From positions 44,977 to 108,976 of the forward strand of contig MHRQ01000020.1 of the NCBI GenBank assembly GCA_001821015.1: 64,000 nucleotides of DNA. Reading direction: 5' to 3'. Positions within the stretch are counted from its first letter, which is position 1. Each line of letters starts with the position of its first letter. Below the pieces are notes generated by a model. The model did not search any database, was not told the DNA's origin, and saw only the letters and a list, made by a program, of their open reading frames with translations. This document shows positions 15,887 to 33,060 of the stretch, piece after piece. Both the position numbers and the translations under genes were made by a program. This DNA is from Candidatus Taylorbacteria bacterium RIFCSPHIGHO2_02_FULL_46_13. GTDB lineage: Bacteria > Patescibacteriota > Minisyncoccia > Phycocordibacterales > DSPV01.

Positions 15887-15893
15887 ATATTTT

Positions 15894-17759: not shown

Positions 17760-17763
17760 TGGG

Positions 17764-18723
17764 TTAGGTGCGGAACATCTTTTTAAAAATCAAGATGTTG
17801 TAATATTTTTCAGAAGAAAAATCAAAATTCTTACCGATGTGTGCGTCTAGTTCATCCAAAATAGACTGGACTGTTCCTTTTGCTTTAATACCAAGCTCAC
17901 GCTCAATCTTTTTTGTAGACATTGCGTAGTCGCGCAGGTCATTCGTGTGATTCAGATGTATGTCTAACGTGACACCATGAGTCTGTTTGAAGTGTTTCGC
18001 GAGAGCTTTCCCTACCTCGCCTACCGAGAAATTTCCAGAACTTAGATTGTACACCCCGCTTATTTCTTGTGGCATTGATACTGCTTTCGCATACGCATCT
18101 ACCGAGTCTGAAATAGCGAGGATTGGACGCCAAATACTAGGGTTATTAATGATCAATTTGCCTTCAGTCATGGCCCGCATATACATGGTATTGATGATGA
18201 GATCAAAGCGCATCCGCGGGCTAAAACCTGAAATAGTCCCATGACGGAAACTGATTACTGAAAAGTTTTTATCTTGGAGATGCATCACACCATATTCTCC
18301 TTGTGCTTTTGAAATACCATACGGATTGGTACTTGCGGGAAGTGTGTCTTCAGTCAGCAGTTTTTTTCCGGTCATGCCGTAGACCGAACCGGAACTTGCG
18401 TAGATGAATCTTTTCACTCCAGCTTTTTTAGACATATATGCAAGATAGGCTGGGCCGGCAGCATTTGACACGAAGTTCATAGCGGGAGAAAATTCGGCCA
18501 TCGGATCGTTTGAAAGTCCTGCAACAAAAATCACCTGATCATACTCTTGTAGAAATGCTTCGTCTGCTTCAATCACATCTTTTTTATGTACGGGTACACC
18601 CTTTGGTAAATAATTGCCAAACCAAAAGAGGTCAAGCACTTCTACTTGATGTTTTTCTTCAATAAGTTTTGATACCAGTCTCGTACCTAAATATCCACCA
18701 CCACCTGCAACAAGAATTTTCAT
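17764..18723 (-). CDS. NAD-dependent sugar epimerase/dehydratase (SDR)
   Basis: MKILVAGGGGYLGTRLVSKL Rossmann motif. Contiguous with DegT gene. Confidence 0.7.
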   Translation of the reverse strand: MKILVAGGGGYLGTRLVSKLIEEKHQVEVLDLFWFGNYLPKGVPVHKKDVIEADEAFLQEYDQVIFVAGLSNDPMAEFSPAMNFVSNAAGPAYLAYMSKKAGVKRFIYASSGSVYGMTGKKLLTEDTLPASTNPYGISKAQGEYGVMHLQDKNFSVISFRHGTISGFSPRMRFDLIINTMYMRAMTEGKLIINNPSIWRPILAISDSVDAYAKAVSMPQEISGVYNLSSGNFSVGEVGKALAKHFKQTHGVTLDIHLNHTNDLRDYAMSTKKIERELGIKAKGTVQSILDELDAHIGKNFDFSSEKYYNILIFKKMFRT

Positions 18724-19839
18724 TTACGTAAAGTCATTAATAATTTGTATAACATGGTCGACCTCTTCTTCAGTAAGCTCGGGGAATAAAGGTAATGAGA
18801 CAATCTTTCCCGCGTTTGCTTCTGTGCGAGGCAGCGAACCCTCTGCATACCCGAGGAAGTTGTATGCTTTTTGCAGGTGGATGGGGGTGGGGTAGTGGAT
18901 GCCGTAGCCGATGCCTTTTGTTTTGAGGTATTCAAGAAATCTTTCTCGCGTGTCAACCTTAATCACGAAGAGATGGAAGATATGTGATGCGTTTGGCCTC
19001 GTGCGCGGGAGTTCTATCAGAGGGTTTTTTATTTCTTTGCTATAGCGACTTGCAATCTCTTGACGTTTTTGATTATACACATCAAGGTGTGGCAATTTTA
19101 CTCGAAGTATTGCGGCTTGTATCTCATCAAGGCGGCTGTTGTATCCTTCAAAATTTGCGTGATACGAACCCTCCATGCCGTACATTCTAAGCGCCCGGCA
19201 TTTATCCGCGGTTAGTTTGTCATGGGTGAGTATCAGGCCACCATCCCCCAACGCTCCCAAGTTTTTAGTCGGGTAAAAACTGAAACAGGCGGCATCTCCA
19301 AAACTTCCGACTTTTTTATTTCCAATCATCGCTCCGCTTGATTGAGCGCAATCCTCCACGACTTTCAAATGATGTTTGTGTGCGATTTTCATCACCGCTT
19401 CCATATCTGCTCCTTGCCCATACAGATGTACAGGAACGATAGCCCTCGTTTTTTTTGTTATGGCAGCTTCAAGTTTTAAGACGTCCATCAGAAAATATTC
19501 ATCAACGTCTACAAATACAGGTGTGGCCTCTACTTCTCTGATTGCGCTTGCGGTTGGGGTTGCTGTGTTTGAGACCGTGATGACTTCATCTCCCGTGCCT
19601 ATTCCCAATGCCTTGAGAGCGATTTTAAGGGCGTCAGTGCAGGAATTCACCCCAACCCCATATTGCATGCCTATATACGAACTAAATTCAGTCTCAAACG
19701 CTTCCACTTCTTTTCCCATGACGAATTTTCCTGAGTCTAGCACTCTTTGTATCGCGGAAGTAAGCTCATAGCCGAGCTCCTTGATTTGTCTGGTTGCGTT
19801 GAAAAATGGAACTGCCGTTAAGACGGAAGGATTAAACAT
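18724..19839 (-). CDS. DegT/DnrJ/EryC1/StrS-family PLP-dependent sugar aminotransferase
   Basis: [16 protein letters not shown]..., [16 protein letters not shown]..., lysine region. Track ORF (to 20043) has a 68-aa N-terminal extension that is just the translated intergenic repeat; start moved to MFNPSV. Confidence 0.75.
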
Positions 19840-19871
19840 ACGCCCGTTCTCCGCACGTGTCTTTTTTGAGT

Positions 19872-20030
19872 TTATTGCCAAGCGAGTGAGCGGAGAGAAA
19901 AAGTATCTTCTTTTTATCTCCCGAGCGAGCGATGGCAACAAAGGGTTTACTACCCCACGGCTTGCCGCGGGTGAGTACGCGGGGAGCGTGTCCCTCATGC
20001 GGGGCTTGCCCCGCGGTATAATACCCTTTA
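19872..20030. repeat. Hairpin repeat family, copy A (long form with GC-rich palindromic insert)
   Basis: TTATTGCCAAGCGAGTGAGCGGAGAGAAAAAGTATCTTCTTTTTATCTCCCGAGCGAGCGATGGCAACAAAGGGTTTACTACC...GGTATAATACCCTTTA. Near-identical to 24095..24253. Confidence 0.85.
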
Positions 20031-20441
20031 TTTTTTTAGGCATTTTTTGAATTCCTCGTAGTTTCTAATGTAATCTTTTTCATCATAGAGACTGTCAAAG
20101 AGGGCGAGTGTGACGGTATCTTTTTTGAAATTTTTCATAACGTGCCATACATACGGTTCAAGCACGAGACCTTCTTCCGGATGTGAAAGCGTCACGGTGG
20201 TTTTTTCAGCGCCGTTGTCCAATTCTACATCACATCCTCCTGAAAGAACCATAAAAACCTGTCTGCTCTGGTGATGAGTGTGAGCACCTCTCGGCTCGCT
20301 ACTTTCTGTGCATTTAGTTACGAGAGTTCTCTTTATGGTAAACGGAACCTCGCCCGCGTTCTTTCCTTCTTGAAACATAGTGAGAGCTCCATTTTTGGTT
20401 TCAAAGGATGGGAATTTTATTATGGTATAGAGTTTTTTCAT
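20028..20441 (-). CDS. FdtA/WxcM-like cupin sugar 3,4-ketoisomerase
   Basis: [27 protein letters not shown] ... YVWHVMKNF ... [20 protein letters not shown] fits the FdtA pattern (His pair, cupin fold, C-terminal YDE.DYIR). Confidence 0.6.
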
Positions 20442-21463
20442 AGTAATTGTTTAGTTTTTATTTTTTTCAACAGGGGCGACAAGATTGTTTTTACTAATCT
20501 GCGGCCTGGGTAGTATATTGAGTTGTTAAAAAATTGTTCGCTGTTCTGCTTGAATCCGGGCCGTACTATTACTCCATACTGCCAGTCAGGTTCTACCGTT
20601 CTTACGCTCTCAAGCATTTGGTAGAGGCATTGTGCATAGGGTTTGTACATGAGATCTTTCGCAGGCGATGAGCGTGTATACTCACGAAACGTTTGTGGCC
20701 CATAGGGCAGAATCATTGATCTCGGGTATAGTCCAAAGCCTGAAAAATGGAAGAATACAAGCTTGTCTGGGCCCACATACACCTCTTTTTCTTTCGTGTA
20801 GATGGGCATTCCCTGAATGTTCCATGGTGCCACATTTGCCCCTCGGTTTTTTAATATATACACGCCCTTGAATTTCTCTTCAAAATAATCAAGATACCCT
20901 TGGTCGTCATAGTGTCCAGGTCTTTCCGTGTCGTCACAGTATAAGTTACATTGCATACGCCACCAATGGAGGCACTCAAGCGCGTATGTGTCATTTCGAA
21001 AGATGAGCATGCCAACATTGTATGTACCCACCTCTTTTTCTTTTGCTTTACGTGTAGCCACAAGATTGTGTGGAATTATCATAATGGAATGAGCTCCCAT
21101 TTCTTTGTAAATAATTTCTGGTGAAGAAAAGAAATATAAATCAGCATCAAGATAGGTAATATGTTCAACATTTTTGTAGGTGAGGATATAAAGCGGGAGG
21201 GAGGGGGAGATGGTAAAGAAGTATTTTCTTTGACTACGAGTTTTTTTAATTTCTTTCAACTCGTCATCTTCAAATTCTTTTAGCGTTATCAACTGAACGT
21301 TTTGCAAACGTAATTTTTCAAGTGTCTGGTAGGTGAGGTCATCCATGCACAAAATCCAGAGGGTAAATTTTCCTATGTGTGTACTCAAAGAGTGATGAAG
21401 AGCCAAGCCTTTTATAAGAAAGCCTTTATCAAAAAGCGTACAAAAATTGAGATGTGCATTCAT
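20438..21463 (-). CDS. Putative GT-A nucleotide-diphospho-sugar transferase-like protein
   Basis: YLDADLYFF (DxD) and YDDQGYLDYF motifs. Weak family-level guess. Confidence 0.4.
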   Translation of the reverse strand: MNAHLNFCTLFDKGFLIKGLALHHSLSTHIGKFTLWILCMDDLTYQTLEKLRLQNVQLITLKEFEDDELKEIKKTRSQRKYFFTISPSLPLYILTYKNVEHITYLDADLYFFSSPEIIYKEMGAHSIMIIPHNLVATRKAKEKEVGTYNVGMLIFRNDTYALECLHWWRMQCNLYCDDTERPGHYDDQGYLDYFEEKFKGVYILKNRGANVAPWNIQGMPIYTKEKEVYVGPDKLVFFHFSGFGLYPRSMILPYGPQTFREYTRSSPAKDLMYKPYAQCLYQMLESVRTVEPDWQYGVIVRPGFKQNSEQFFNNSIYYPGRRLVKTILSPLLKKIKTKQLL

Positions 21464-22428
21464 TGTTGTAGAATCCCTTTTAACATCTTTTTTGTGGTAT
21501 GTAGTACCCTCAATATCTTTCCAGCAACACGATTGTAGCGATATCGTTGATTGACGAGCTTTTTGCTTTCAGCGGCGAGTTCTTGGAACAGAGGGTCATT
21601 AAATAAGGCGCTTCCTCTTTCTGCAATCTCAAGAGCGAACCCGTCTTGTCTTTTCAATGTGGCAAAAATCCACATCAGTAAATATTCTCGAATGGTAAAG
21701 CTTTTGTCAGTCATTTCATTTACAAATGACATTTCTATCCAGCCCGGAGCTTCAGAGGTCGCAGTACTCAGTGCTCTGTTTTCTGATGCGGAGAGTGATT
21801 TTTTTATCTCATTCTTTAGGCGTCTGACACCCATCACTCTCATAGTAGTCATCCAAAAAGGCATCTTTTCCATATACCGCAAAACCTGCCAAGCCTTGTC
21901 TTCACCATGGTACGCGTCAATAATCCCGGGTTCAAAGTCAGCCACCATCACTGTATAGGCGAGCGACCCTATGCTCTGGAAAAGACTTAAATCGGTTCCC
22001 TGTGAGTCAGTTTTGAACCAATCAATCCTATCAAGCTTGATTTCGGAGAGCACGTCGTTTATATTTTCAGCCTTACGCGTGACTCTTTTTTCTACTTCAA
22101 ACCGTGGACCTATGATCCAGTGCGCAGTTTTTTCGGTATCTGGTTTCAAGGTGCTTGAACAGAAAGGTGAGGCGGTAAGATAAAAGTCAGCTGTTTTTTC
22201 TTTACCAGGGATAACAACTGAATCGCGAATGTAGAGCTCTTTGAAAGGGGAAGTGTTTTCGGTAAGGTGTTTCATTTCTCGGCTATCGGGATCAAAGGCA
22301 ATACAAATGGAATAGGGAGCGATTTCTTTCCAAGGGCCATATACTTCTCCCGACGCTCCAATATCAAGCAACACAGGCGGTCTCGCTCTCAATTCATTTC
22401 TATTGAGTATGGTTTGAATGATGTTCAT
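21460..22428 (-). CDS. FkbM-family SAM-dependent methyltransferase
   Basis: VLLDIGASGEVYGPW and IDWFKTDSQGTDLSLF resemble FkbM motifs (DxGAxxG; KiDvEGxE). Confidence 0.5.
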   Translation of the reverse strand: MNIIQTILNRNELRARPPVLLDIGASGEVYGPWKEIAPYSICIAFDPDSREMKHLTENTSPFKELYIRDSVVIPGKEKTADFYLTASPFCSSTLKPDTEKTAHWIIGPRFEVEKRVTRKAENINDVLSEIKLDRIDWFKTDSQGTDLSLFQSIGSLAYTVMVADFEPGIIDAYHGEDKAWQVLRYMEKMPFWMTTMRVMGVRRLKNEIKKSLSASENRALSTATSEAPGWIEMSFVNEMTDKSFTIREYLLMWIFATLKRQDGFALEIAERGSALFNDPLFQELAAESKKLVNQRYRYNRVAGKILRVLHTTKKMLKGILQQ

Positions 22429-23252
22429 TTTATTTTAAATATAAAACCTTTGTCAGTTGCGGTTTCTTTACCAAGGTTGATATCTCCGGCGAGTGCTTTC
22501 CAATCGGCAACTATTTCATAGTCTGACGTAAAGAAACGAAGAAACTTTCTTTCATTAAGAAACCGCGCAGGATAGCTTGCATCATAGACTTTTGGTGAAG
22601 ATTTTTGAATCGTAATGCGGTCTGGTGTATTTCCTGTAAAGAAAGGGGTTCTATCCACAATAATGTATTGCGGGCGCAACTCTTTGATTGTATGCAGGAG
22701 GTCGTACGGTTTTTCAAGATATGGAAGCACGCTCGAAAGCAGTATCACCTGTGGGTGTACTACAGCAGCGCAATTTTTTAAGTCATCATAAAATTTCAAA
22801 TGTTCATCAGCGAGGTGTTGGTTTCCGAATTGGACGAAATGTTTCTGCTCAACGATACTCCAGGTAAGAGGTCTCACGTGTGAGAGGAAGTTTTTGTTTT
22901 GGTAATAACTGGAACCTAATGATCCTCCAATATCAATGGCGCTTAAGGTGTTTTCATTCACACTGGCAATCCACAGTAGTCCCGCAAGCACAGGCCATGA
23001 ATATTCTATGTGATCAAAATTAACCGAGTCGCGTTCAAAGGCGGCTTCACCATGTTTGACTCTTAGTGCCGCATTTTTCACTTTCTCCAGAATGAGAGGT
23101 GTATCATAGCCAGTGGTTAGGGTTCGTGCCTCGCTCCATGTCTTGTAGTCCCCGCTGTATTGTTTGGGTTGCGGATGTGCAATAGAATGAGCCATATCCC
23201 AGATTATTGGAGGTGTCATCGCCTTTATGATTTTTAATGGATATCGTTTCAT
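22425..23252 (-). CDS. Putative SAM-dependent methyltransferase (uncharacterised family common in glycan/flagellin-glycosylation clusters)
   Basis: GYDTPLILEKV...GEAAFERDSV...IDIGGSLGSSYYQNK...WSIVEQKHFV pattern. Assignment from motif memory only. Confidence 0.4.
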   Translation of the reverse strand: MKRYPLKIIKAMTPPIIWDMAHSIAHPQPKQYSGDYKTWSEARTLTTGYDTPLILEKVKNAALRVKHGEAAFERDSVNFDHIEYSWPVLAGLLWIASVNENTLSAIDIGGSLGSSYYQNKNFLSHVRPLTWSIVEQKHFVQFGNQHLADEHLKFYDDLKNCAAVVHPQVILLSSVLPYLEKPYDLLHTIKELRPQYIIVDRTPFFTGNTPDRITIQKSSPKVYDASYPARFLNERKFLRFFTSDYEIVADWKALAGDINLGKETATDKGFIFKIK

Positions 23253-24082
23253 TTTTTATTTAATACTTCATCCAGATTTTTGCGAGGGAAAACATCCAAA
23301 AGTCCTCCCCGAGTAGCATTCATAACGAGCACCTCGCGCACAGTTGCATACCGCTTGATTTCTTTGTAGATATTCCAGAGTCTTACATAGGATTCAAATT
23401 CTGTTCCCAGATCGGTACCCCACTGGTTTAGGCCCGTTCGAGTAAGCTCGCTCTCATTTTCGGCGTAAAAATGTCGGTTTTCTCCATAGTGTAATATCCA
23501 GTCATGGTCGCAACCTACTAGATAGATTTCTTTCGCTCCGCTATAGAGTGCTAAGTATATTGCTTGGTGTGCAACTGTCTGTATAAGTGGAATTTGTTTT
23601 GTGTACTCAATAGGACTCTCCGCTGAAATTTGGCTTTGTGAAAACACATAAAAATAAATCCGTTGTTTCTTGAGCAGTTTGAATTCTTGCGACAAGGAGC
23701 GGTCATGTACAGACATCATGACTTTTTGCCCCTCGGGCAGGTGTCTTTCGGCATCCTCCAGCCACGCCTTCATTTGTTCTTTTGTGATCGGAGCATGTGA
23801 TTCTGAAAAGACATGATATTCCGGTTTAATAATCTTAAAATCAGGATGCACAAAGAAATTACTGACGCTAATACAGAATTCTCCCTCTAGTTTCTTAAGG
23901 TCTTGCGTTTTTATTGAGGGGCCGCAGGCGAGAATAAAGCACCGCTTTCCGAGAAACTTGTTTTTAAGCTCGGCGTTTGGTTTGAGTTTCTGTCGGTGGC
24001 GAAGATAGAACAGGTATTTGCGCAGAGCATGTTTCTGTGTTCGGTAGAAATCTGCAAGTTCAATGAACAGTGGCCCAACCAC
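23249..24082 (-). CDS. DUF115/Maf-like (motility-accessory-factor type) putative nonulosonic-acid transferase; start uncertain (possible GTG)
   Basis: FILACGPSI and YLVGCDHDW motifs. Track ORF (to 24286) N-terminus is the translated repeat copy B; no ATG lies between the repeat and the conserved region. Confidence 0.4.
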   Translation of the reverse strand: MVGPLFIELADFYRTQKHALRKYLFYLRHRQKLKPNAELKNKFLGKRCFILACGPSIKTQDLKKLEGEFCISVSNFFVHPDFKIIKPEYHVFSESHAPITKEQMKAWLEDAERHLPEGQKVMMSVHDRSLSQEFKLLKKQRIYFYVFSQSQISAESPIEYTKQIPLIQTVAHQAIYLALYSGAKEIYLVGCDHDWILHYGENRHFYAENESELTRTGLNQWGTDLGTEFESYVRLWNIYKEIKRYATVREVLVMNATRGGLLDVFPRKNLDEVLNKK

Positions 24083-24094
24083 GGTAAGTCTTTT

Positions 24095-24253
24095 TATTGC
24101 CAAGCGAGTGAGTGGAGAGAAAAAGTATCTTCTTTTTCTCTCCCGAGCGAGCGACGGCAACAAAGGGTTTACTACCCCACGGCTTGCCGCGGGTGAGTAC
24201 GCGCACAGCGCGTTTTTCATGCGGGGCTTGCCCCGCGGTATAATACCCTTTAT
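24095..24253. repeat. Hairpin repeat family, copy B (long form)
   Basis: TTATTGCCAAGCGAGTGAGTGGAGAGAAAAAGTATCTTCTTTTTCTCTCCCGAGCGAGCGACGGCAACAAAGGGTTTACTACCCCACGGCTTGCCGCGGG...GGTATAATACCCTTTAT. Confidence 0.85.
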
Positions 24254-24295
24254 AAATCCTCGAATAGTCGGGTTTTTTTCAGTCATGGGGTTTTT

Positions 24296-24988
24296 CTATT
24301 TTTTGTGACATACACCATAAAAACAGGTAGTCAGCACTCCGGTACTCAAGGTTGCTTTGTGGGTGAGTAACTCTACGTTTCCAGCTCCAAAGTGGTCTGT
24401 AAGAAGAGCCAAGAAATCATTTCGCGTGAGCTCGTACTTGTGATACGGATTATGCATGCTGGGGCCGGATTTCCCGGTAGGGTTTTCAGGCGAACTTACA
24501 ATAAGTGTGCCGCCAGGCTTAAGAGCGTTTAAAAAAGCTTTGATAAGTGGCCCTTGGTATTTTGATTCTATGTGTTCAATCCCCTCAATACAGCCGATGA
24601 CGTTAAACTGTGCGGAGGGCAATTCAGGATTTGTTAGATCTCCCGACAAGAACGAAGTTGTCTTATTTCCGTATATCCGACGCGCGTATTCAATCGTAAT
24701 AGCATCGTCATCCATGCCTTTATACACGATTCCAAACGGCGCAAGTATCTCTGCCGCGTATCCGCTCCCGCATGGGAAGTCTAAGACATGGTCGTTGGGG
24801 CGGCAGTAAAAACCCACGAGCGAATACCGTCCTTTATGCCGCACCACTGAATCTTTCATGTCGGCTGACGGGACGTCGCTTTTTTGTACAGAAACATGTG
24901 TGCCGTCAGGCATATCAAATTCAAGGCCTCTAAGGTAGAGTCGTTCGGGGTCAGCCGCAGTCCGTATGATGTTCTCTGTGCGCTTCAT
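24296..24988 (-). CDS. Class I SAM-dependent methyltransferase
   Basis: HVLDFPCGSGYAAEIL (motif I) and LKPGGTLIVS (post-motif II). Confidence 0.65.
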   Translation of the reverse strand: MKRTENIIRTAADPERLYLRGLEFDMPDGTHVSVQKSDVPSADMKDSVVRHKGRYSLVGFYCRPNDHVLDFPCGSGYAAEILAPFGIVYKGMDDDAITIEYARRIYGNKTTSFLSGDLTNPELPSAQFNVIGCIEGIEHIESKYQGPLIKAFLNALKPGGTLIVSSPENPTGKSGPSMHNPYHKYELTRNDFLALLTDHFGAGNVELLTHKATLSTGVLTTCFYGVCHKK

Positions 24989-24995
24989 ACGATAG

Positions 24996-25658
24996 TTATG
25001 GTTTTACAATAAAAGATGGAATATGGCTCCATGGAAATTTCTCAATTCTGACGTTCATTTTCGCAAAGAAATCATCCACAGCCTTTGTCTCCCCGGGGAA
25101 CGTTCCATAGTCGTCAAAGGCGATGATTCCGCCTCTCACCACACGCAGGTAGAGCGTTTCAAGGATTGTTTTGGCTGGTTCATAAATGTCAGTGTCTATA
25201 TGCAGTAAGGCAATTTTGAGGTGGGGATTGTCGCGCAGATAGCGCGGCACGGTCTTTACAACATCGCCGGCTACCAGTTCTACGTTTGTGATTTTTTTCG
25301 CATCAAGGATATGCTCGAGTGCCGTGGTGCTCAACGCTTCGTTGCCGGCACTAGAGACAAAACGTTGCAAGTATTTTTTATCGTCCTTGAATTTTGTTGG
25401 GGGTACTTTGCCAAACGTATCAAATCCGATGATCTTTCGGCTGTGGGGAGTTTCCACTAGATTTCTAAACGTCGCGAATTGAATGAGAGAGTTTCCCTTA
25501 AAAACCCCGCATTCAACGACTGCACCCGGCAGGTCGGCGATTTTCTTATACAACTCATAGTGTGCGAGAATTTTCCCCATACGGTCAATGCCGCTGGTCA
25601 TCATGAATCCATTTTCATATTCAAACACCGAATTATTTTTTACTACGGGTTTTTTCAT
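24996..25658 (-). CDS. TylF/MycF-family sugar O-methyltransferase
   Basis: LPGAVVECGVFKGNSLIQFA ... IIGFDTFGKVPP ... IAFDDYG fits the macrocin-O-methyltransferase family pattern. Confidence 0.65.
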   Translation of the reverse strand: MKKPVVKNNSVFEYENGFMMTSGIDRMGKILAHYELYKKIADLPGAVVECGVFKGNSLIQFATFRNLVETPHSRKIIGFDTFGKVPPTKFKDDKKYLQRFVSSAGNEALSTTALEHILDAKKITNVELVAGDVVKTVPRYLRDNPHLKIALLHIDTDIYEPAKTILETLYLRVVRGGIIAFDDYGTFPGETKAVDDFFAKMNVRIEKFPWSHIPSFIVKP

Positions 25659-26527
25659 TTTGGTTTGTATTTTAATTTCTTTCTTTGTTCTTTTTCGACC
25701 GGAAGAATAGGTTCACGTTTAAAGGAGAGGGAAATGTGCGTAGCATGTAAATTGCGAGCCAGTTTGGATAATCCTTGTGGTTCAAGCGATGCGGCATGGT
25801 CGGTACCTTTCCATGTTCTATTTTTAGTAAAGTGTCGTTCAACCCACACTGCTCCGAGGGTGTATGCCGCTATGTCTATCGCAATGCCATTATGATGTCC
25901 CGAGAACCCGATTTCTTTTACGCGTTCCCCATAGGTTTCCTTTAGCCGTGTTATTTCAAGCAGGCTCACGTCTTTAAAATCAACAGGGTATCCCGACGTA
26001 CATGCATAGAGCACCAGGCGTTTCTTTGCCGCTCCGGTTTTCTCAAAGAAGGCGACGAGCGCTTCTTCTTCTTTCGGCGTTGTCATTCCGACCGACACAT
26101 GGATATCTCCTTTATATGTATCGCGCAAGAGCTCTAGCATCTTGAAATGATTGTTACTTGCGGAAGGGACTTTTATAAATCGGGGATTAAGACGGATTAT
26201 TTCTTTTGCCGATGTTACGTCCCAGACTGATGATGAATATTCAATACCGATTTTTTGAGCATACGTTAGCAGTTTTTCATGGTCTGCGACGCTAAACTCA
26301 AGATATTCGCGATGGGCTCCGTAGGTATTTCCAAATGAATTTTGCGGGTTTGGATGGGGGGTTTGGTACTGTTTTTTTGTCAGAAGTTCTCTTGGATTTC
26401 TCTTTTGGAATTTGACGACGTCCGCGCCAGAATCTTTTGCAAGCTTAATAAGTTCTTTGGCAATCTCAATATCGCCCATATGGTTGCATCCGATTTCCGC
26501 GATTACGTTAGGTTTTTTGTATTTCAT
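25655..26527 (-). CDS. NeuB-family nonulosonic acid (sialic/pseudaminic/legionaminic-like) synthase, short form without C-terminal SAF domain
   Basis: VIAEIGCNHMGDIEIAKELIKLAKDSGADVVKFQKRNPRELL. 290 aa, shorter than canonical ~340-aa NeuB. Confidence 0.7.
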   Translation of the reverse strand: MKYKKPNVIAEIGCNHMGDIEIAKELIKLAKDSGADVVKFQKRNPRELLTKKQYQTPHPNPQNSFGNTYGAHREYLEFSVADHEKLLTYAQKIGIEYSSSVWDVTSAKEIIRLNPRFIKVPSASNNHFKMLELLRDTYKGDIHVSVGMTTPKEEEALVAFFEKTGAAKKRLVLYACTSGYPVDFKDVSLLEITRLKETYGERVKEIGFSGHHNGIAIDIAAYTLGAVWVERHFTKNRTWKGTDHAASLEPQGLSKLARNLHATHISLSFKREPILPVEKEQRKKLKYKPK

Positions 26528-27198
26528 AACCCTTTAATTTTTTTGAATAGTTCTTCTGCGCCCGCCCAGTCTTCGGGAGTATCAATATCAATTGATTGTT
26601 CAGGTTTCATTTCAAACATGCCGATTGAGCCCCCAAGAAAATTCTTATGATTTTGCAAGGTTGATTTCCTGGTGATGTAGAACGCACCATTCTCGGTGAT
26701 AGTTCCTTCAAAATCTTGCGTTCGGGGCCGTTCGTTCGGGTTGTAATTGAGAGGCTTTCCATTTTTTGTCCAATAGAACCGTTTGTGCAAAGTCCCGGTA
26801 ACTAAGGCGTCATTTTTTTTCTCTTCAAGTGTTTCAATGGCGCGGTCTATGTCGTCTCTCGTAGTGAGGGGGTTGGTTGCGTGCAGGATTACCAATATAT
26901 CAAACGGGACTTGTGTCATGAAGTGTAGGTGGACGAGCTCTTCGGGGGTGGTATCTTGCGCTAGTTCTTTAGGGCGGTGGCTGATCGTAAGATTCAGTCC
27001 TTGTGCGGCCATGGTTTGTTTAATCTTTTCATCTTCTGTAGAGACGTGGATCGCATCAATATATTTTGATTGTTTTGCGGCATGCGCAACCCAATAGGCC
27101 AAAGGTCTTCCGTGGAAGGTTTTAATGTTTTTACCGGGAATCCTTTTTGAATTTCCCCGAAGCGGGATGATCGCGACGACTTTTTTATTATTAATCAT
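26524..27198 (-). CDS. CMP-nonulosonate (acylneuraminate) cytidylyltransferase, NeuA/KdsB family
   Basis: KVVAIIPLRGNSKRIPGKNIKTFHGRPLAYWVAHAA...IDAIHVSTEDEKI. Start set to MINNKK; ATGA-type overlap with neuB-like gene. Confidence 0.7.
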   Translation of the reverse strand: MINNKKVVAIIPLRGNSKRIPGKNIKTFHGRPLAYWVAHAAKQSKYIDAIHVSTEDEKIKQTMAAQGLNLTISHRPKELAQDTTPEELVHLHFMTQVPFDILVILHATNPLTTRDDIDRAIETLEEKKNDALVTGTLHKRFYWTKNGKPLNYNPNERPRTQDFEGTITENGAFYITRKSTLQNHKNFLGGSIGMFEMKPEQSIDIDTPEDWAGAEELFKKIKGL

Positions 27199-28258
27199 GG
27201 TGTTTTTTGATTTGTTTACGGTACATCCATCGGGCCACGTGATAGATACCGGGTAGAGAGCGTAACGTTTCCGCAACAATCTGTGGGACTGCGCGTCGTT
27301 TCATTTCCGGCTTAAGCATTACCCGTTCTGCAACACATGGGGTATCAGCGTTTGCGTTGCAAAAGTCAGCCATAACCGCGAATATATTGTATGTGTTGAG
27401 CGTGAGTTCTCGCGCTATTTTGATCGCTTTAGTCCGCTTTTCATATACATGTTCAATAATCGCTTGTTCAATGATTTCAATTGATTTGTGGGGGTCATCC
27501 ACGTCTACTCTGATAAATGCTTCCGGGCTGTAATATGTTTCTAGATCCGGGCATCCATAGTAGAAGGGGAACGTATGTCCAAGATACACGTCTCCAATTC
27601 CAGTGACATACCCAGGCACATACGCGTTCTCAATCATTACATAGTATTGGTAAGGAGCAATGCCGTCCATTTTATCGCTAATGCGATTGATTCCATTACC
27701 AAATACATCCATCGTATCTTTAAAGTGTTCTTTCAACGCGCTGATGAATGCATGGCGTTTGCGTTGGCCAGGCGCGCGATTTTTTGATGCATTAACAACG
27801 GCAAGAAGCTTTGTTTTTTCTGGCACGCGCATGGTCTTATAGGTATTATACGTGGTGAAATATCTTTTAAAATCTTTCGGGTCTACTCCAGAGCCTGTGC
27901 CGAAATGTCCAACCATCCATGGTGCTACTTGGCGGCGTATAAGGTGTGGGTGGTGTATCTCTGGGTGAGCACTGATAATATACCCAAATTGCTCAATAAA
28001 CTTCCGTGCGTATTTTTTGATGTCCGGGTTTCCTTCTCCCGTCATCAATACCGTGCGGTTTTTTGGTCCGTATGCACGGGTCGGTTTTTCTAAGTTGTTC
28101 CACACGAACCACCAGTCAAACGCTGTTTCAGATTCATCAGTGATAAACTCGCAGTTCCCCCATACTCCCTTGGAACCAGGCGTTTGTCGTAGGTACGGTA
28201 TGTCAGGATACTGACTGCTGAATTTTACTCTTATTTTTTTATGTGTGAGAGTCTCCAT
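27191..28258 (-). CDS. Putative glycosyltransferase with GT10/WecF-like fucosyltransferase C-terminal motif
   Basis: YQYYVMIENAYVPGYVTGIGDVYLGHTFPFYYGCPDLETYYSPEAFIRVDVDDP parallels the GT10 motif (FENS...DYITEK...VPVV.G...AFIHVDDF). Moderate/low. Confidence 0.4.
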   Translation of the reverse strand: METLTHKKIRVKFSSQYPDIPYLRQTPGSKGVWGNCEFITDESETAFDWWFVWNNLEKPTRAYGPKNRTVLMTGEGNPDIKKYARKFIEQFGYIISAHPEIHHPHLIRRQVAPWMVGHFGTGSGVDPKDFKRYFTTYNTYKTMRVPEKTKLLAVVNASKNRAPGQRKRHAFISALKEHFKDTMDVFGNGINRISDKMDGIAPYQYYVMIENAYVPGYVTGIGDVYLGHTFPFYYGCPDLETYYSPEAFIRVDVDDPHKSIEIIEQAIIEHVYEKRTKAIKIARELTLNTYNIFAVMADFCNANADTPCVAERVMLKPEMKRRAVPQIVAETLRSLPGIYHVARWMYRKQIKKHHD

Positions 28259-28261
28259 ACG

Positions 28262-29608
28262 TTAGCTTGCCTTCTTGTGTTGCATATTCCACGCGGTTGG
28301 TATGAGAAAATATCCTCTCGTACCGCTTTTTGAGGCTAGCTCATGATATTCTTTCGGGCTATGAACCGTTACCGTCTTCTGGACAGGTGTGTCGGCAAAA
28401 TAATCTTTACTTCTGAAACAGAAGAGTTTTATCTCTATTAGATATTCGCCCGCCATGAAGAGCCGAGCGGGGATCAAAAGGTTTGCGTTATAGTGCCCCG
28501 CCGTGATTTCCTCAAGCTCCGGTTCCCAATCTTGAACAAATGAGCGCGAGATAAGCGTCCCCGAGCTGTTCTTAATTAACACGCCGACCCGAAATGATTG
28601 CAGGTTGCGAGCGATTGAAAAACCGATATGTATTCCAAAGGGGTCGCTACCATCAATGCTCTCTGTTTGCTTCCCGCGTTGGGTGATGGAGAATTCTGTA
28701 AGCGTCACGTTTTCGTCGGTCATAGGAAGGGGGAGCGGCGTGTCATGTTGCGGTCCGCCTTTGAGGTACAGCTCTATGATTTTATCCGTATCGCCGATCG
28801 CCGAAATCTTTCCTTGTTCAAGGAGTACGGTCGTTTTGCATAAACGAGAGACCGCATCCATGTTATGGCTTACGAAGAGGATCGTGCGGCCCTGTGTTTT
28901 TGTGACCTCATCCATTTTTCCGAGACATTTTTTCTGAAAATCCGCATCGCCGACCGCCAGCACTTCATCCACTAAGAGGATATCCGGTTCAAGATGAGCG
29001 GCGACGGAAAATGCCAGTCGCACATACATGCCGCTTGAGTAGCGTTTTACCGGCGTATCTATAAAACGCTCAATGCCAGAGAATGCGACAATCTTGTCAA
29101 AGTTCTTTTCAATTTGTCGCTTAGTCATTCCAAGGATAGCTCCGTTTAAGAATATATTCTCACGGCCAGTGAGCTCCGGATGAAATCCGGTCCCGACCTC
29201 AAGGAGTGACACTACTTTTCCTTTAATTTTTATCTCTCCTTCCGTAGGCGGGGTGATGCCCGTGAGGATTTTTAGCAAGGTTGATTTTCCCGCGCCATTT
29301 CTCCCGATAATGCCGATGACCTCTCCTTTCTTAACATCAAGATTGATATTTTTGAGCGCCCAGAACTCCTCCTTCGTTTCTCGGGCGAGGATTTTTTTCA
29401 TCTGGTTTTTTATGGTTTGGAATGGGGATAAGAGTGCGTACGTGATATTGTCTCGCAAGGCCGTATACCTCGCCGATCTATGTGCAATACGGTATTTCTT
29501 TGAGATATTTTTTATTGATATAACCGTTTCTATCCCGTTAGAGACAGGAAGCGCTTCGCTCGCCTGGCGGGATTGTGGTGGGGGTAATTTTTCTTTTATG
29601 TGAGTCAT
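28262..29608 (-). CDS. ABC transporter ATP-binding protein, Wzt/TagH type with C-terminal extension (possible glycan-binding domain)
   Basis: Walker A GIIGRNGAGKSTLLKIL, signature YSSGMYVRLAF, Walker B ILLVDE. ~200-aa C-terminal extra domain. Confidence 0.8.
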   Translation of the reverse strand: MTHIKEKLPPPQSRQASEALPVSNGIETVISIKNISKKYRIAHRSARYTALRDNITYALLSPFQTIKNQMKKILARETKEEFWALKNINLDVKKGEVIGIIGRNGAGKSTLLKILTGITPPTEGEIKIKGKVVSLLEVGTGFHPELTGRENIFLNGAILGMTKRQIEKNFDKIVAFSGIERFIDTPVKRYSSGMYVRLAFSVAAHLEPDILLVDEVLAVGDADFQKKCLGKMDEVTKTQGRTILFVSHNMDAVSRLCKTTVLLEQGKISAIGDTDKIIELYLKGGPQHDTPLPLPMTDENVTLTEFSITQRGKQTESIDGSDPFGIHIGFSIARNLQSFRVGVLIKNSSGTLISRSFVQDWEPELEEITAGHYNANLLIPARLFMAGEYLIEIKLFCFRSKDYFADTPVQKTVTVHSPKEYHELASKSGTRGYFLIPTAWNMQHKKAS

Positions 29609-29674
29609 ATCGTTTATTTTAAAATTTCAGTGCTACCGTAGCGAAGCGGTCTCTAACGGGATCCATATATTTTT

Positions 29675-30502
29675 CTATACTATATCCGCAAAGATACGTT
29701 CTGTTTTTTTAAAGACAAAAACACCGATAATGAATAGCACGATGCCAATGAGCGCTGATGTTGCCAGCGCTGTCCAGTCAAGCGAGCCTGTGCCTAAAAG
29801 GCCGATGCGCGCGTTATTGATGACTCCGGTCATGGGATTGAGATACAGTATCCATGCATATTTGCCGGCTATGGAGGTAGGGTAAATGACAGGTGTTATG
29901 AAGATGAGTAACTGCAAAAAAAATGGGAGCACGTATCGGACATCGCGATATCGCACATTAATTGATGACAGTATTAATCCAGTACCGACTGCGGGTAAAA
30001 ATGCCAACAGTAACAGTAGCGGTACGAGTAAGACTCCCACAATTGTGGGGAGGATCTGGTAGTACACCATCAGTCCTGCCATAATGAGCGCCGCGAAGGA
30101 GAAATCAACCAACTTGGTTACGGTATCCGCTAGGGGGAGGAGCAGACGCGGAAAGTAGACTTTGGTAACGATTGAAGCATTTGAAATTAGCGTGTTGGAG
30201 CTTTCTGACAGGGAGCTGGTAAAGAATTGCCAGAATAAAAGACCGCTATAGACAAACACCGGATAGGGGACGCCTTCGGAAGGAAGGTGTGCGAGTTTTC
30301 CGAAGATTACGGTAAACACCACCATGGTGATGAATGGTTGGAACACTGCCCACATGATTCCGACGACGGTTTGCTTATAGCGTACTTTAATGTCGCGCCA
30401 TGCAAAAAAGTAGAGTAGTTCTCGATACTCCCACAGCTCTGTAAGGTCAGCGGTACTGAACGATTTCTTCGGTCGGATGATTTTTGTATATACGGTGGAC
30501 AT
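29675..30502 (-). CDS. ABC-2 type polysaccharide export permease (Wzm-like)
   Basis: Six hydrophobic segments; position immediately downstream of Wzt-like ATPase. Confidence 0.75.
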   Translation of the reverse strand: MSTVYTKIIRPKKSFSTADLTELWEYRELLYFFAWRDIKVRYKQTVVGIMWAVFQPFITMVVFTVIFGKLAHLPSEGVPYPVFVYSGLLFWQFFTSSLSESSNTLISNASIVTKVYFPRLLLPLADTVTKLVDFSFAALIMAGLMVYYQILPTIVGVLLVPLLLLLAFLPAVGTGLILSSINVRYRDVRYVLPFFLQLLIFITPVIYPTSIAGKYAWILYLNPMTGVINNARIGLLGTGSLDWTALATSALIGIVLFIIGVFVFKKTERIFADIV

Positions 30503-30510
30503 GGCAGTGC

Positions 30511-31608
30511 TTATTTTTTAATCTGCGTGAGGTCATGGTGTACCATTCGTTTGACGAGTTGCTCAAATGAAATTTCTGGCTTCCAACCGAGTTCGCGGCG
30601 AGCTTTATTCGCATTTCCCCGCAGAGACCGTACTTCGTTGGGGCGAAAATATTTTAAATCAATAACCACGCGAGTCTTTTTTGTTTTAGCGTCAATGCCA
30701 CGCTCGGTGAGCCCCCTACCTTTCCAGATAAGTTTGACCTCGGCTTCTTTAAATGCGCGTTCACAGAACTCACGGACACTGTGTTTTCTGCCAGTGGCGA
30801 TGACGTAGTCTTTGGGTGTTTTCTGTTGGAGCATCAAATGCATTGCACGCACAAAGTCTTCAGCGTGCCCCCAATCACGCTCTGCATCAAGGTTGCCGAG
30901 CCGGATGTGCTCGCGTTTACCGGCAAGAATCTCCGCAATGCCGATGGTAATCTTGCGTGTGACGAAATTCTCACCCCGGCGCTCGCTTTCATGGTTGAAA
31001 AGGATCCCGTTCACGATGAACATCTCGTATGACTCTCTATAGATACGACCAATGTGGTAGGCGTATAATTTTGCCGCTCCATACGGACTGCGCGGTTGAA
31101 AAGGCGTTTCTTCATTGAGTTCCGAGACGTTTATGTCACCGGGGAACATTTCAGAGGTTGATGCTTGGTAGATCTTTGCGGGTAATTTCAAATGTCTCAC
31201 TGCTTCCAATATATTTAAAAGTCCGATCGCGTCGGCGTGTGCCGTGTAGACCGGTTTTTCAAATGAAACCTGAACGTGACTTTGTGCTGCGAGGTTGTAT
31301 ATCTCGTCGGGTCTGACTGCCGCGATAGTAGAAAGCATTGAGATGGGGTCCGTGAGATCGCCATAGTGCAATTTCAAATTGCCTGGATTAACGTAATCGT
31401 AAATATGTTCAATTCGTTGGTGGTTGAACGTAGAGGCACGGCGAACAATACCATGTACCTCGTACCCTTTTTCCAAAAGATGTTCCGCAAGATAAGATCC
31501 ATCTTGTCCCGTGATGCCGGTGATAATGGCCTTTTTTCGTTTAGCGCGGTTTCCCGTTCGCTTTGTTTTTTTGTATTTTTTTGGCATGAGTTCTCTTTCT
31601 ATAATCAC
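30511..31608 (-). CDS. gmd: GDP-mannose 4,6-dehydratase
   Basis: KAIITGITGQDGSYLAEHLLEKGYEVHGIVRRASTFNHQRIEHIY closely matches the conserved Gmd N-terminus. Lys-rich N-terminal extension suggests true start may be internal. Confidence 0.85.
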   Translation of the reverse strand: MIIERELMPKKYKKTKRTGNRAKRKKAIITGITGQDGSYLAEHLLEKGYEVHGIVRRASTFNHQRIEHIYDYVNPGNLKLHYGDLTDPISMLSTIAAVRPDEIYNLAAQSHVQVSFEKPVYTAHADAIGLLNILEAVRHLKLPAKIYQASTSEMFPGDINVSELNEETPFQPRSPYGAAKLYAYHIGRIYRESYEMFIVNGILFNHESERRGENFVTRKITIGIAEILAGKREHIRLGNLDAERDWGHAEDFVRAMHLMLQQKTPKDYVIATGRKHSVREFCERAFKEAEVKLIWKGRGLTERGIDAKTKKTRVVIDLKYFRPNEVRSLRGNANKARRELGWKPEISFEQLVKRMVHHDLTQIKK

Positions 31609-31621
31609 TATAAGGTGATAA

Positions 31622-31870: not shown

Positions 31871-31876
31871 AACCCT

Positions 31877-33054: not shown

Positions 33055-33060
33055 ATTGAA

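Follow-up and report, generated by a model that had tools for sequence, protein, structure and literature searches.

Which nonulosonic acid is made by the sialic-acid-like genes of Candidatus Taylorbacteria bacterium RIFCSPHIGHO2_02_FULL_46_13, and where does it end up? These genes lie in a window of 64,000 nt, which is the whole stretch of DNA analysed (contig MHRQ01000020.1, GCA_001821015.1, positions 44,977-108,976 of the forward strand). The host, Candidatus Taylorbacteria (CPR/Patescibacteria), is a monoderm-type groundwater bacterium with a tiny genome. An earlier note on this DNA had proposed a nonulosonic acid (NulO) module for Kdn, pseudaminic (Pse) or legionaminic (Leg) acid, consisting of a NeuB-like protein without SAF domain, a NeuA-type CMP-synthetase, a DUF115/Maf-like protein and a remote KdsC-like phosphatase. 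Every element was upheld in testing: the four reading frames lie where they had been placed, the first three on the minus strand and the phosphatase on the plus strand, with family matches well beyond chance. The gene set, within an ABC-transporter surface-glycan operon, is likely to make Kdn, a relative of sialic acid, by the full pathway proposed below, and Kdn is probably attached to an exported cell-surface glycan. The candidate pathway genes are:

25655..26527, minus strand: predicted Kdn-9-phosphate synthase, a SAF-less NeuB-family PEP aldolase (290 aa; PF03102, E 2e-64)
26524..27198, minus strand: predicted CMP-Kdn synthetase, a NeuA-type cytidylyltransferase (224 aa; PF02348, CTP_transf_3, E 3.5e-27)
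9597..10169, plus strand: KdsC/YrbI-type HAD phosphatase, candidate Kdn-9-P phosphatase (190 aa)
23249..24082, minus strand: putative Kdn transferase, a stand-alone MptE-like (DUF115) protein built on a Maf/GT42 sialyltransferase-like core (277 aa)

Proposed synthesis of Kdn-9-phosphate

PF03102 is the sole domain of the 290-aa NeuB-like protein, spanning residues 26-267, and no match to a SAF domain was obtained in the Pfam search, in agreement with the earlier description. This absence is the normal state of the short-NeuB family and not a truncation. Homologs of the synthase are 287-313 aa long and 64-80% identical across phyla, and the reference Kdn-9-P synthetase of Prymnesium parvum (CAMPEP_0191217894; sequence taken from the supplement of PMC6200933) is also SAF-less (312 aa). 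The two proteins are 65% identical over the full length (185/286 residues, E 2e-142). In vitro, the P. parvum enzyme makes Kdn-9-P from Man-6-P and PEP and accepts no substrate other than Man-6-P, refusing ManNAc, ManNAc-6-P, Man, Ara-5-P and others (PMC6200933).

The PDB relatives are much weaker (NmNeuB 78 bits, CjPseI 73, SpsE 62), and the NCBIfam models score 192 against a cut-off of 400 for NeuB and 131 against 340 for PseI. The protein does not cluster with SpsE (61.8 bits) or KDO-8-P synthase; clustering with these alone had been named as evidence against the module. When aligned with NmNeuB, the protein keeps the KxQ, K..S, S.H and ExH positions, which we take to be the PEP- and metal-binding positions of that enzyme. 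It is strongly supported, with the specificity extrapolated from the 65%-identical eukaryotic ortholog, that the short NeuB would condense PEP and mannose-6-phosphate to Kdn-9-P. A proposed check for a PseB/PseC-type set revealed no PseB, PseC, LegB or LegC equivalogs at the locus, and this lack of upstream Pse/Leg enzymes, together with the identity to a Man-6-P-specific synthetase, narrows the sugar to Kdn.

Proposed activation and dephosphorylation

The cytidylyltransferase gene and the start of the NeuB gene share 4 nt, and the PF02348 match of the cytidylyltransferase bears out the NeuA-type assignment. The protein is 36% identical to the Kdn-specific CMP-Kdn synthetase of P. parvum, and its top PDB match is 9T4Z 'PpNeuA' (122 bits). 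Homology and adjacency support its predicted role in making CMP-Kdn. Of the 80 related loci, 70 carry a CMP synthetase no more than 3 kb from the synthase, and 62 of the 80 hold a BT1713-type Kdn-9-P phosphatase (~50% identical to BT1713).

The HAD protein scores 90.7 bits with KdsC, 84.4 bits with KDN-9-P phosphatase and 78.8 bits with TIGR01670, all under the curated cut-offs, and among PDB entries it is closest to KdsC/YrbI proteins. It shares only 27% identity with BT1713, its gene lies 16 kb off the module on the opposite strand, and it neighbours a PfkB-like, heptose-7-P-kinase-like gene; for these reasons, and because of the sub-cut-off scores, a different substrate is possible. Comparative context ties it to the pathway. 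In the CPR locus L090, a 53.6%-identical ortholog has the CMP synthetase on one side and the Kdn-9-P synthase on the other, and orthologs with 51-55% identity adjoin NeuB genes in L093 and L094, where the CPR-type HAD pairs with other NeuB subfamilies (35% identity in L093, a NeuB+SAF protein in L094). This gene context supports removal of the 9-phosphate of Kdn-9-P by the HAD protein, and such a partner implies a phosphorylated intermediate.

The MptE-like protein

With 41.1 bits, the match to PF01973 (MptE-like, formerly DUF115) clears the gathering cut-off of 34.6, so the DUF115/Maf-like assignment stands. In the public annotation, and as a mechanical ORF, the gene runs to 24286 (345 aa), across the following element:

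24093..24253, no strand: intergenic structured repeat, outside the pathway (161 nt; copy at 19871-20031; fold z-score -6.1)

The 345-aa ORF was rejected, as its extension is a read-through of the repeat that inflates the frame, and the homologs are 277-293 aa. The start at 24082 (GTG) given in the earlier note is thus approximately correct, with a TTG at 24103 as a second option.

The AF2 model (pLDDT 94) has an NulO transferase (Maf) as its best structural match, followed by CMP-sialic-acid transferases, and the protein is confidently predicted to be a bare Maf/CstI-II sialyltransferase-like core. Homologs directly adjoin NeuB-type NulO cassettes in Flavobacteriales (L088), in Methanoculleus (L087, next to a more distant short NeuB), in the CPR loci L012, L090 and L091, and in 7 of the 80 scanned loci; those of the CPR bacteria and Flavobacteriales are Kdn cassettes. 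Fold and conserved adjacency suggest that the MptE-like protein may transfer Kdn.

The surface-glycan operon

The module is housed in an ABC-transporter-dependent (Wzm/Wzt) operon of ~20 kb on one strand, with stop/start overlaps between genes. The coordinates of the NeuB/NeuA/DUF115 grouping were right, but the MptE-like gene, described as 2.4 kb away, is not dispersed: the intervening space is filled by two methyltransferase genes, and the three genes of the grouping form one co-directional, tightly packed unit. The neighbouring genes are:

24996..25658, minus strand: TylF-family sugar O-methyltransferase (PF05711, E 3.5e-19), overlapping the synthase stop
24296..24988, minus strand: class I SAM methyltransferase (Methyltransf_23/25/11 matches)
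22425..23252, minus strand: TIGR04325-family methyltransferase (206 bits, cut-off 80)
21460..22428, minus strand: FkbM-like methyltransferase, weak match (PF05050 21 bits, TIGR01444 22.6 bits, both sub-cut-off)
20438..21463, minus strand: GT8-like glycosyltransferase, weak match (PF01501 21.5 bits, sub-cut-off)
27191..28258, minus strand: GT10-like (fucosyltransferase-like) glycosyltransferase (PF00852 25.3 bits, cut-off 23.9), overlapping the cytidylyltransferase start
28262..29608, minus strand: Wzt-type ABC transporter ATPase with extended C-terminal domain (ABC_tran E 2.7e-24; Wzt_C 26.1 bits, below the cut-off of 30.4)
29675..30502, minus strand: Wzm-type ABC-2 permease (PF01061, E 1.1e-15)
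30511..31608, minus strand: GDP-mannose 4,6-dehydratase (Gmd), first gene of the operon (TIGR01472 497.9 bits, cut-off 415)
36585..38849, plus strand: Wzy_C (O-antigen ligase/O-oligosaccharyltransferase family) and TPR protein (PF04932 E 1.2e-15, plus TPR repeats)

The whole locus is syntenic with the Patescibacteria locus L012 (50-75% identity). The TylF-type gene lies directly 3' of the Kdn-9-P synthase in L007, L012, L090 and L091 (65-90% identity), and orthologs of the class I SAM methyltransferase are found in L007 (73%) and L091 (53%). In L012, an ortholog of the TIGR04325 gene occupies the corresponding place (67% identity); this locus also keeps the FkbM-like (51%) and GT8-like (63%) genes, which are found in L089 as well (37%, adjoining an MptE-like gene, and 43%, respectively). 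The methyltransferases may O-methylate Kdn. Wzm/Wzt flank the Kdn cassette in 10 of the 80 other loci, immediately adjacent in several. The Wzy_C and TPR gene makes glycan transfer to protein or wall conceivable, and its product could perform the final transfer step for the glycan of the module. A link to the giant Thr/Ser-rich protein, put forward in the earlier note, is still speculative.

Comparison with known systems

The module has the same three enzyme types as the Kdn pathways of P. parvum and Bacteroides thetaiotaomicron (BT1713-BT1715), with the closest likeness to P. parvum in the SAF-less synthase and a more distant one in the cytidylyltransferase. Most bacterial Kdn loci have the order synthase, cytidylyltransferase, phosphatase, whereas here the cytidylyltransferase precedes the synthase, and the phosphatase is, unlike that of B. 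thetaiotaomicron, a divergent CPR-type KdsC-like HAD encoded remotely on the other strand. Also, in contrast to both organisms, the module forms part of an operon that holds four methyltransferases, the MptE-like protein and Wzm/Wzt as well, in a CPR host.

The MptE-like protein shares with Magnetospirillum Maf (PDB 5MU5) the DUF115/MptE-like catalytic core, the GPSI and LxG.D motifs and the link to NulO biosynthesis genes, but it lacks the N- and C-terminal Maf domains and a flagellar context. It is predicted to use CMP-Kdn as donor instead of CMP-Pse/Leg and probably has a glycan, rather than flagellin, as acceptor. Campylobacter CstI/CstII (CAZy GT42), which act on glycan acceptors, are similar in size (~260-290 aa), and a CMP-activated 3-deoxy-2-ulosonic acid donor is expected in both cases; however, the likeness is at the fold level, with 13-18% identity in structural alignments and no sequence similarity detectable by HMMER.

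The C-terminal domain of Wzt reads terminal caps, such as methyl or phospho-methyl in E. coli O8/O9a, Kdo in Klebsiella O12 and O-methyl-rhamnose in the Geobacillus S-layer glycan. The Taylorbacteria locus resembles such capped O-antigen and S-layer-glycan systems in having Wzm with an extended Wzt, an ulosonic-acid module and methyltransferases in one operon, and a Wzy_C-family enzyme nearby. It differs in that the Wzt_C match is sub-threshold, a terminal Kdn is speculative and the host presumably has no LPS.

Alternative explanations

That another nonulosonic acid (Neu5Ac, pseudaminic, legionaminic or an undescribed 9-phospho-NulO) is made instead of Kdn is improbable. The top NCBIfam models are NeuB and PseI/PseF, the locus encodes a DegT aminotransferase along with several dehydratases/epimerases of the SDR type, and the CPR-type HAD also partners other NeuB subfamilies. 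However, the NeuB, PseI, PseF, PseB, PseC, LegB and LegC equivalog models all score far under their cut-offs at the locus, where a NeuC/PseG-type enzyme was not found either. DegT adjoins FdtA, a pairing that is characteristic of the dTDP-3-amino-6-deoxyhexose route and not of that to Pse/Leg. In NmNeuB, the N-acetyl group is contacted by an arginine of the SAF domain; this domain is absent here, and the closest characterized relative refuses ManNAc and ManNAc-6-P.

Somewhat less unlikely, although still doubtful, is that Kdn is made as proposed but transferred by the GT10-like protein or another glycosyltransferase, with a different role for the MptE-like protein, for example, a pyrophosphokinase-type reaction as in archaeal MptE. 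Many bacterial sialyltransferases have a GT-B fold, and the GT10-like protein could in principle be the Kdn transferase. Its gene shows the same degree of conservation in CPR loci, immediately upstream of the cytidylyltransferase (orthologs in L090 and L091, a clear GT10 in L012). Against this, it matches a fucosyltransferase family and Gmd is encoded in the same operon, and a search of the 80 non-CPR Kdn loci gave no homolog at E<1e-5. MptE-like genes, in contrast, adjoin NulO cassettes in Flavobacteriales, Cytophagales and an archaeon, and the top structural matches of the MptE-like model are a NulO transferase and then CMP-sialic-acid transferases. The MptE-like protein could also work like Maf in the cytoplasm and, without involving the Wzm/Wzt glycan, O-glycosylate Ser/Thr of a protein directly with Kdn, with a pilin or the Thr/Ser-rich surface protein (>2056 aa, start 57831) encoded 30 kb away as acceptor. 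Maf enzymes are reported to place NulOs, and promiscuously Neu5Ac or Kdo, directly on Ser/Thr. This mode is improbable too: the protein has only 277 aa against 632-666 aa in the solved Maf chain, its gene sits among Wzm/Wzt and numerous glycosyltransferase genes in a polysaccharide operon, an arrangement shared by Bacteroidota O-antigen-like loci, and no flagellin gene was seen. The extra Maf domains bind flagellin.

Proposed pathway

In the preferred reading, transfer of Kdn by the MptE-like protein to an exported glycan, the SAF-less NeuB-family enzyme would form Kdn-9-P from PEP and mannose-6-phosphate, the KdsC-type HAD would strip the 9-phosphate and the NeuA-type enzyme would yield CMP-Kdn. 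The MptE-like protein may then move Kdn from CMP-Kdn, most likely to a lipid-linked glycan at the cytoplasmic face, and the TylF-type and other SAM methyltransferases may O-methylate Kdn and/or neighbouring sugars. Wzm/Wzt would export the finished glycan, with fucose/6-deoxyhexose; more speculatively, Kdn could sit at the non-reducing end as a cap recognised by the C-terminal domain of Wzt, and the Wzy_C and TPR enzyme might join the glycan to a surface protein or the wall. Although the Kdn pathway is known from other organisms, it is previously undescribed in the group of Candidatus Taylorbacteria, and the likely Kdn transferase belongs to an uncharacterised family.

Probable Kdn synthesis genes

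The genes considered here probably make up the known Kdn pathway, as it occurs in Bacteroides thetaiotaomicron (BT1713-BT1715) and Prymnesium parvum, in a rearranged layout specific to CPR bacteria and with a divergent phosphatase. They belong to a Candidatus Taylorbacteria (CPR/Patescibacteria) genome assembled from a groundwater metagenome. They form one long minus-strand operon, in which many stop and start codons overlap by 4-8 nt, and the phosphatase candidate is encoded apart from it on the plus strand (9597..10169).

Genes of the minus-strand operon, from the first gene onward
30511..31608, minus, Gmd (498 bits against an equivalog cut-off of 415)
29675..30502, minus, Wzm (clear permease match)
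28262..29608, minus, Wzt (clear ATPase match; Wzt_C 26.1 bits against a gathering threshold of 30.4)
27191..28258, minus, GT10-like protein
26524..27198, minus, cytidylyltransferase
25655..26527, minus, NeuB-like synthase
24996..25658, minus, TylF-type O-methyltransferase
24296..24988, minus, class-I SAM methyltransferase
23249..24082, minus, MptE-like protein
22425..23252, minus, TIGR04325 methyltransferase
21460..22428, minus, FkbM-like protein
20438..21463, minus, GT8-like protein
20028..20441, minus, FdtA
18724..about 19800, minus, DegT
17764..18723, minus, SDR
15894..17759, minus, carbamoyltransferase
14307..15943, minus, two proteins of unknown function
13451..14305, minus, GT11
12256..13284, minus, GT2

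The NeuB-like protein (OHA26506.1; locus tags A3C06_029xx) had been described in the earlier note as a 290-aa synthase without SAF domain, and this description holds, as PF03102 is matched alone (E 2e-64, residues 26-267) and a SAF match is absent. Its closest characterized relative is the Kdn-9-P synthetase of P. parvum (CAMPEP_0191217894), which its authors found through similarity to BT1714 and of which the sequence was translated from the supplement of PMC6200933. The two proteins share 65% identity and 78% positives over 286 residues with one gap (E 2e-142). The P. parvum enzyme is itself SAF-less, with 312 aa, and the alignment ends at most 10 residues from its C-terminus. Since the homologs also form a tight family of short proteins, the absence of SAF is not a truncation; it is the normal architecture of Kdn-9-P synthases. 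A truncated or pseudogenised NeuB was ruled out, as homologs in the thousands share the short length (287-313 aa) at 64-80% identity.

Other members of the NeuB family are far more distant. The best-scoring of these structures is 6NCS, a 290-aa 'sialic acid synthetase' (82 bits), followed among the PDB relatives by Neisseria meningitidis NeuB (78 bits), Campylobacter jejuni PseI (73 bits) and Bacillus subtilis SpsE (62 bits). The class assignment is based on this gap in bit score (391 bits versus at most 82) and on identity, in place of a NeuB/PseI/LegI tree. The synthase also stays below the NCBIfam equivalog cut-offs for NeuB (TIGR03569, 192 versus 399.65 bits) and PseI (TIGR03586, 130.9 versus 340.25 bits). 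Residues K39/Q41, K119/S122, S145, S209/H211, E230/H232 and D243 are invariant in the family alignment and are kept relative to N. meningitidis NeuB, where we take them to be the PEP- and metal-binding residues.

Wagstaff et al. (2018) expressed the P. parvum homolog of BT1714, which forms Kdn-9-P from Man-6-P and PEP only, with 0% conversion of ManNAc-6-P, Ara-5-P, Man, ManNAc, ManN and Ara (PMC6200933). By analogy with this ortholog, the only one for which the specificity has been demonstrated, the window synthase would use Man-6-P and PEP and would reject ManNAc and ManNAc-6-P.

The overlapping gene encodes, as had been proposed, a NeuA-type CMP synthetase (PF02348, E 3.5e-27, 96 bits). Its identity with the Kdn-specific CMP-Kdn synthetase of P. 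parvum is 36%, and among solved structures 9T4Z 'PpNeuA' (122 bits) and murine CMAS (103 bits) score above bacterial NeuA (58-78 bits) and KdsB (at most 35 bits). Judged by sequence, the cytidylyltransferase resembles CMP-Kdn/CMP-Sia synthetases more than it resembles KdsB.

Among the best 80 of at least 591 loci, the canonical bacterial cassette consists of synthase, CMP synthetase and BT1713-type phosphatase, in that order. The CMP synthetase lies less than 3 kb from the synthase in 70 of these 80 loci, and 62 of them contain the phosphatase, about 50% identical to BT1713. In the window, in contrast, the cytidylyltransferase comes first and the phosphatase is not adjacent. The KdsC-like phosphatase that the earlier note placed at 9597..10169 does belong to the KdsC/YrbI HAD group; however, it falls below every curated cut-off (BT1713-type NF058599, 84.4 of 180; KdsC NF007019, 90.7 of 208; TIGR01670, 78.8 of 106.95) and is only 27% identical to BT1713. 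It is a member of a divergent, CPR-centred YrbI/KdsC branch of about 187 aa, of which orthologs sit within the nonulosonic acid cassettes of other loci, and loci from Flavobacteriales and Methanoculleus encode fusions of the cytidylyltransferase with a HAD protein.

Context of HAD orthologs and fusions in related loci
L090 (CPR): cytidylyltransferase, HAD (53.6% identical), Kdn-9-P synthase (69%), TylF, MptE-like
L093: cytidylyltransferase, HAD, short NeuB
L094: HAD, NeuB with SAF
L092: closest HAD ortholog (69%), preceded by a GT4 gene, the same order as in the window
L087 (Methanoculleus), 3938-5128: cytidylyltransferase-HAD phosphatase fusion (396 aa), adjoining short NeuB and MptE-like
L088 (Flavobacteriales), 4845-6008: cytidylyltransferase-HAD phosphatase fusion (387 aa), adjoining short NeuB and MptE-like

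The fusions imply a phosphorylated intermediate. Together with the orthologs inside nonulosonic acid cassettes, they make the HAD protein a likely Kdn-9-P phosphatase, by context and not by sequence. The pairing of Kdn-9-P synthases with a CMP-sugar synthetase and a C0-type HAD phosphatase is thereby seen for the window synthase as well, through gene overlap for the cytidylyltransferase and through the L090 cassette for the remote HAD. A role as a GmhB-like heptose phosphatase is suggested by the PfkB/heptose-7-P-kinase-like gene next door, but is less supported, as the orthologs of the HAD protein occur in a NeuB-linked context.

Kdn versus other nonulosonic acids

The earlier note left Kdn, Pse and Leg side by side as possible products. 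A search of the locus for the upstream enzymes of the other sugars (PseB, PseC, LegB, LegC and NeuC types) found none, with only sub-threshold similarities in SDR and DegT proteins, and Gmd was the sole equivalog-level call. A Pse/Leg pathway was therefore rejected. The DegT protein of the operon is paired with FdtA, a combination which we take to indicate a 3-amino-6-deoxyhexose route.

A candidate Kdn transferase

The DUF115/Maf-like assignment of the open reading frame at 23249..24082 was confirmed by its match to the MptE-like family, formerly DUF115 (41.1 bits; Pfam gathering threshold 34.6). Its proposed GTG start at 24082 is reasonable, since the homologs are 277-293 aa long, compared to an inflated public model of 345 aa; every one of these homologs is annotated as 'hypothetical'. 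MptE-like homologs number 324, and residues S56, N75, D192/H193, H204 and Y206 are invariant. The central DUF115/MptE-like domain is shared with the Maf flagellin nonulosonic acid glycosyltransferases. However, Maf proteins are multi-domain proteins of at least 600 aa from flagellar glycosylation islands (632-666 aa in the solved chain), whereas the 277-aa window protein consists of the catalytic core alone and has polysaccharide genes as neighbors, and no flagellar genes are present in the window. The nonulosonic acid transferases of Tannerella forsythia were dropped as a Maf-like comparison, having been published as GT-B/TagB-like.

In the PDB, neither the single sequence nor a 33-sequence profile had a significant match (E 0.17-1 for the matches obtained), and no GT42 chain (CstI/CstII) was found by phmmer or profile search. 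An AlphaFold model built from the 33-sequence alignment (pLDDT 94.3, pTM 0.92) was compared with known structures using Foldseek, which ranked the CstII sialyltransferase first and placed archaeal MptE pyrophosphokinase, human ST8SiaIII and a Pasteurella sialyltransferase in the top ten. The likeness to GT42 thus exists at the fold level only.

Homologs of the MptE-like protein recur beside the same genes. In Flavobacteriales locus L088, one directly follows a Kdn-9-P synthase (65% identical) and a cytidylyltransferase-HAD fusion, and in Methanoculleus locus L087, one follows a more distant short NeuB (34%). Homologs are also found in the nonulosonic acid cassettes of CPR loci L012, L090 and L091, and of the 80 loci scanned, 7 have a homolog adjoining the cassette. 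Contigs of equal length among the NeuB, MptE-like and HAD matches point to possible additional co-occurrences. One 356-aa homolog (P0218, 43% identical) carries a precomputed PF03102 (NeuB) annotation, and may represent either a fusion of NeuB with an MptE-like protein or an error in gene calling. The main rival for Kdn transfer is the GT10-like protein at 27191..28258, which is equally conserved in CPR loci and is encoded just upstream of the cytidylyltransferase; however, its family match and the Gmd gene assign it to fucose or 6-deoxyhexose transfer. The MptE-like protein is a good candidate for a CMP-Kdn-dependent glycosyltransferase, on guilt-by-association and a predicted fold, which do not amount to proof.

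Proposed glycan assembly and export

The whole operon, from Gmd, Wzm and Wzt through the carbamoyltransferase, is syntenic with locus L012 of another member of the Patescibacteria at 50-75% identity. In all CPR loci examined (L007, L012, L090 and L091; 65-90% identity), the gene after the synthase encodes a TylF-type O-methyltransferase. Wzm/Wzt are located within the regions flanking the Kdn cassette in 10 of 80 other loci and immediately adjoin it in several. In one of the related loci (L048, 9995-15124), Kdn-9-P synthase, cytidylyltransferase, a GFO/IDH/MocA oxidoreductase, an SDR and a BT1713-type phosphatase follow each other, with Wzm and Wzt bracketing the whole gene set. The same spacing of tblastn matches is seen in L068, L073, L026, L055, L058 and L009, with annotation in L048 only; this layout could mean that glycans exported by ABC transporters carry a modified form of Kdn, for example an epimerised or an oxidised one.

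In the most economical reading, a glycan that contains Kdn and a 6-deoxyhexose and bears several methyl and carbamoyl groups would be assembled on a lipid carrier, with export through Wzm/Wzt and final ligation to an acceptor on the surface. A plus-strand gene 5 kb past the operon (36585-38849) encodes a 754-aa protein with a Wzy_C domain, of the O-antigen ligase/O-oligosaccharyltransferase family, and C-terminal TPR repeats in an organism presumed to have no LPS; this protein might couple the glycan, once exported, to protein or cell wall. Kdn may be O-methylated and may form a terminal cap recognized by Wzt, and the acceptor is likewise a matter of inference.

A possible acceptor had been pointed out in the giant Thr/Ser-rich protein (more than 2056 aa) encoded at 57831-63998 on the plus strand and running past the window end, with nothing tying it to the Kdn module. 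The protein is HTH-like at its N-terminus and contains one predicted membrane-spanning segment, long Thr/Ser-rich regions with a recurring 'GNVGIGTTSP..KLSV' motif and, near the window end, a 'SSDIRLKTNI' motif reminiscent of Peptidase_S74, the intramolecular-chaperone domain that occurs in tail-spike proteins. The protein resembles a surface fibre.

These elements can be joined, though such a combined account is improbable as a whole. Stand-alone MptE-like proteins would be dedicated bacterial and archaeal Kdn transferases, a minimal Maf/GT42-like core acting on glycans; in CPR bacteria, an O-methylated Kdn would end the chains of a glycan that is heavily methylated and carbamoylated and exported by the ABC transporter, as a cap read by the extended Wzt; and the Wzy_C-TPR protein would couple this glycan to the giant Thr/Ser-rich fibre. 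We know of no characterized dedicated bacterial Kdn transferase of the short stand-alone MptE-like class.

Surrounding genes and an intergenic repeat

A second sugar sub-cluster (4606-11193, plus strand) contains a Zn-ADH, an E1 alpha/beta thiamine-diphosphate enzyme, GT1/GT4, the KdsC-like HAD, a shortened PfkB-like, heptose-7-P-kinase-like gene (107 bits, sub-threshold) and a CDP-glucose-4,6-dehydratase-like SDR. In related CPR glycan loci, thiamine-dependent enzymes are again present, as a split transketolase (L012) or as E1-like genes (L091), which hints at a branched or chain-extended sugar. Between the two sub-clusters lies a gene (11390-11959, plus strand) for a 189-aa protein with a PaaX central/Cas2-like domain. 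Two carbamoyltransferases (1797..3560, plus; 15894..17759, minus) and an extra FkbM-domain protein (36..1658, plus) extend the glycan gene region to about 36..38849, well over half of the window. A B12-binding radical-SAM enzyme (34840-36381, plus) borders the glycan locus and also adjoins the HAD ortholog in L092 (8605-10134); one may speculate that it is a sugar C-methyltransferase.

An intergenic repeat occurs in four copies of the same orientation (19871-20031, 24093-24253, 36422-36496 and 39153-39313), located between genes of either transcription direction. Two copies of 161 nt are 94% identical, and the other two have a common 75-nt core. The repeat is strongly structured, with several hairpins (fold z-score -6.1), and matches no known RNA family, as an Rfam scan of the whole window returned nothing. 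Its placement next to genes of either direction fits a MITE/REP-like element better than a dedicated regulatory RNA. Through a common 'IPRGKPRM...SPLTRLAI' peptide, it inflates the annotated DegT (19871-20031) and MptE-like (24093-24253) reading frames, and the syntenic locus L012 has no repeat spacers.

Distribution and significance

By the usual description, Kdn is rare in bacteria. The synthase family is very tight and very large, with more than 8000 database matches scored. The best 120 of these are 287-317 aa long, except for one of 444 aa and one of 274 aa, are 64-77% identical to the window synthase (100% for its own cluster), and come from Bacteroidota, Spirochaeta, Patescibacteria and one marine-eukaryote transcript. 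A 444-aa homolog from a marine eukaryote transcriptome catalogue (P0002, 64% identical) fits the reported occurrence of Kdn-9-P synthases in haptophytes and dinoflagellates. In a species-representative collection with one genome per species, at least 591 stretches contain synthase relatives, and the best 80, used for the neighborhood analysis, include Bacteroidota, Bdellovibrio, Alphaproteobacteria, Rickettsiales symbionts, Planctomycetota, Spirochaetia and CPR lineages. Given this number and range of phyla, Kdn may be a common microbial surface sugar. The breadth of the family may be new in view of the literature, in which bacterial Kdn is seen as uncommon, the word used for Kdn-containing capsules in a 2022 paper (PMC9000132).

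In the literature searched, no paper linking Patescibacteria/CPR to nonulosonic acids was found, and the occurrence in CPR bacteria may therefore also be new, as may the uncharacterized stand-alone MptE-like subfamily as a Kdn-transferase candidate. CPR bacteria have genomes of about 1 Mb and live as episymbionts that rely on surface contacts. The locus suggests that they have a surface glycan which is acidic, sialic-acid-like and heavily methylated, and its conserved MptE-like neighbor provides a concrete candidate for a Kdn transferase, an enzyme that would also be useful for glyco-engineering.
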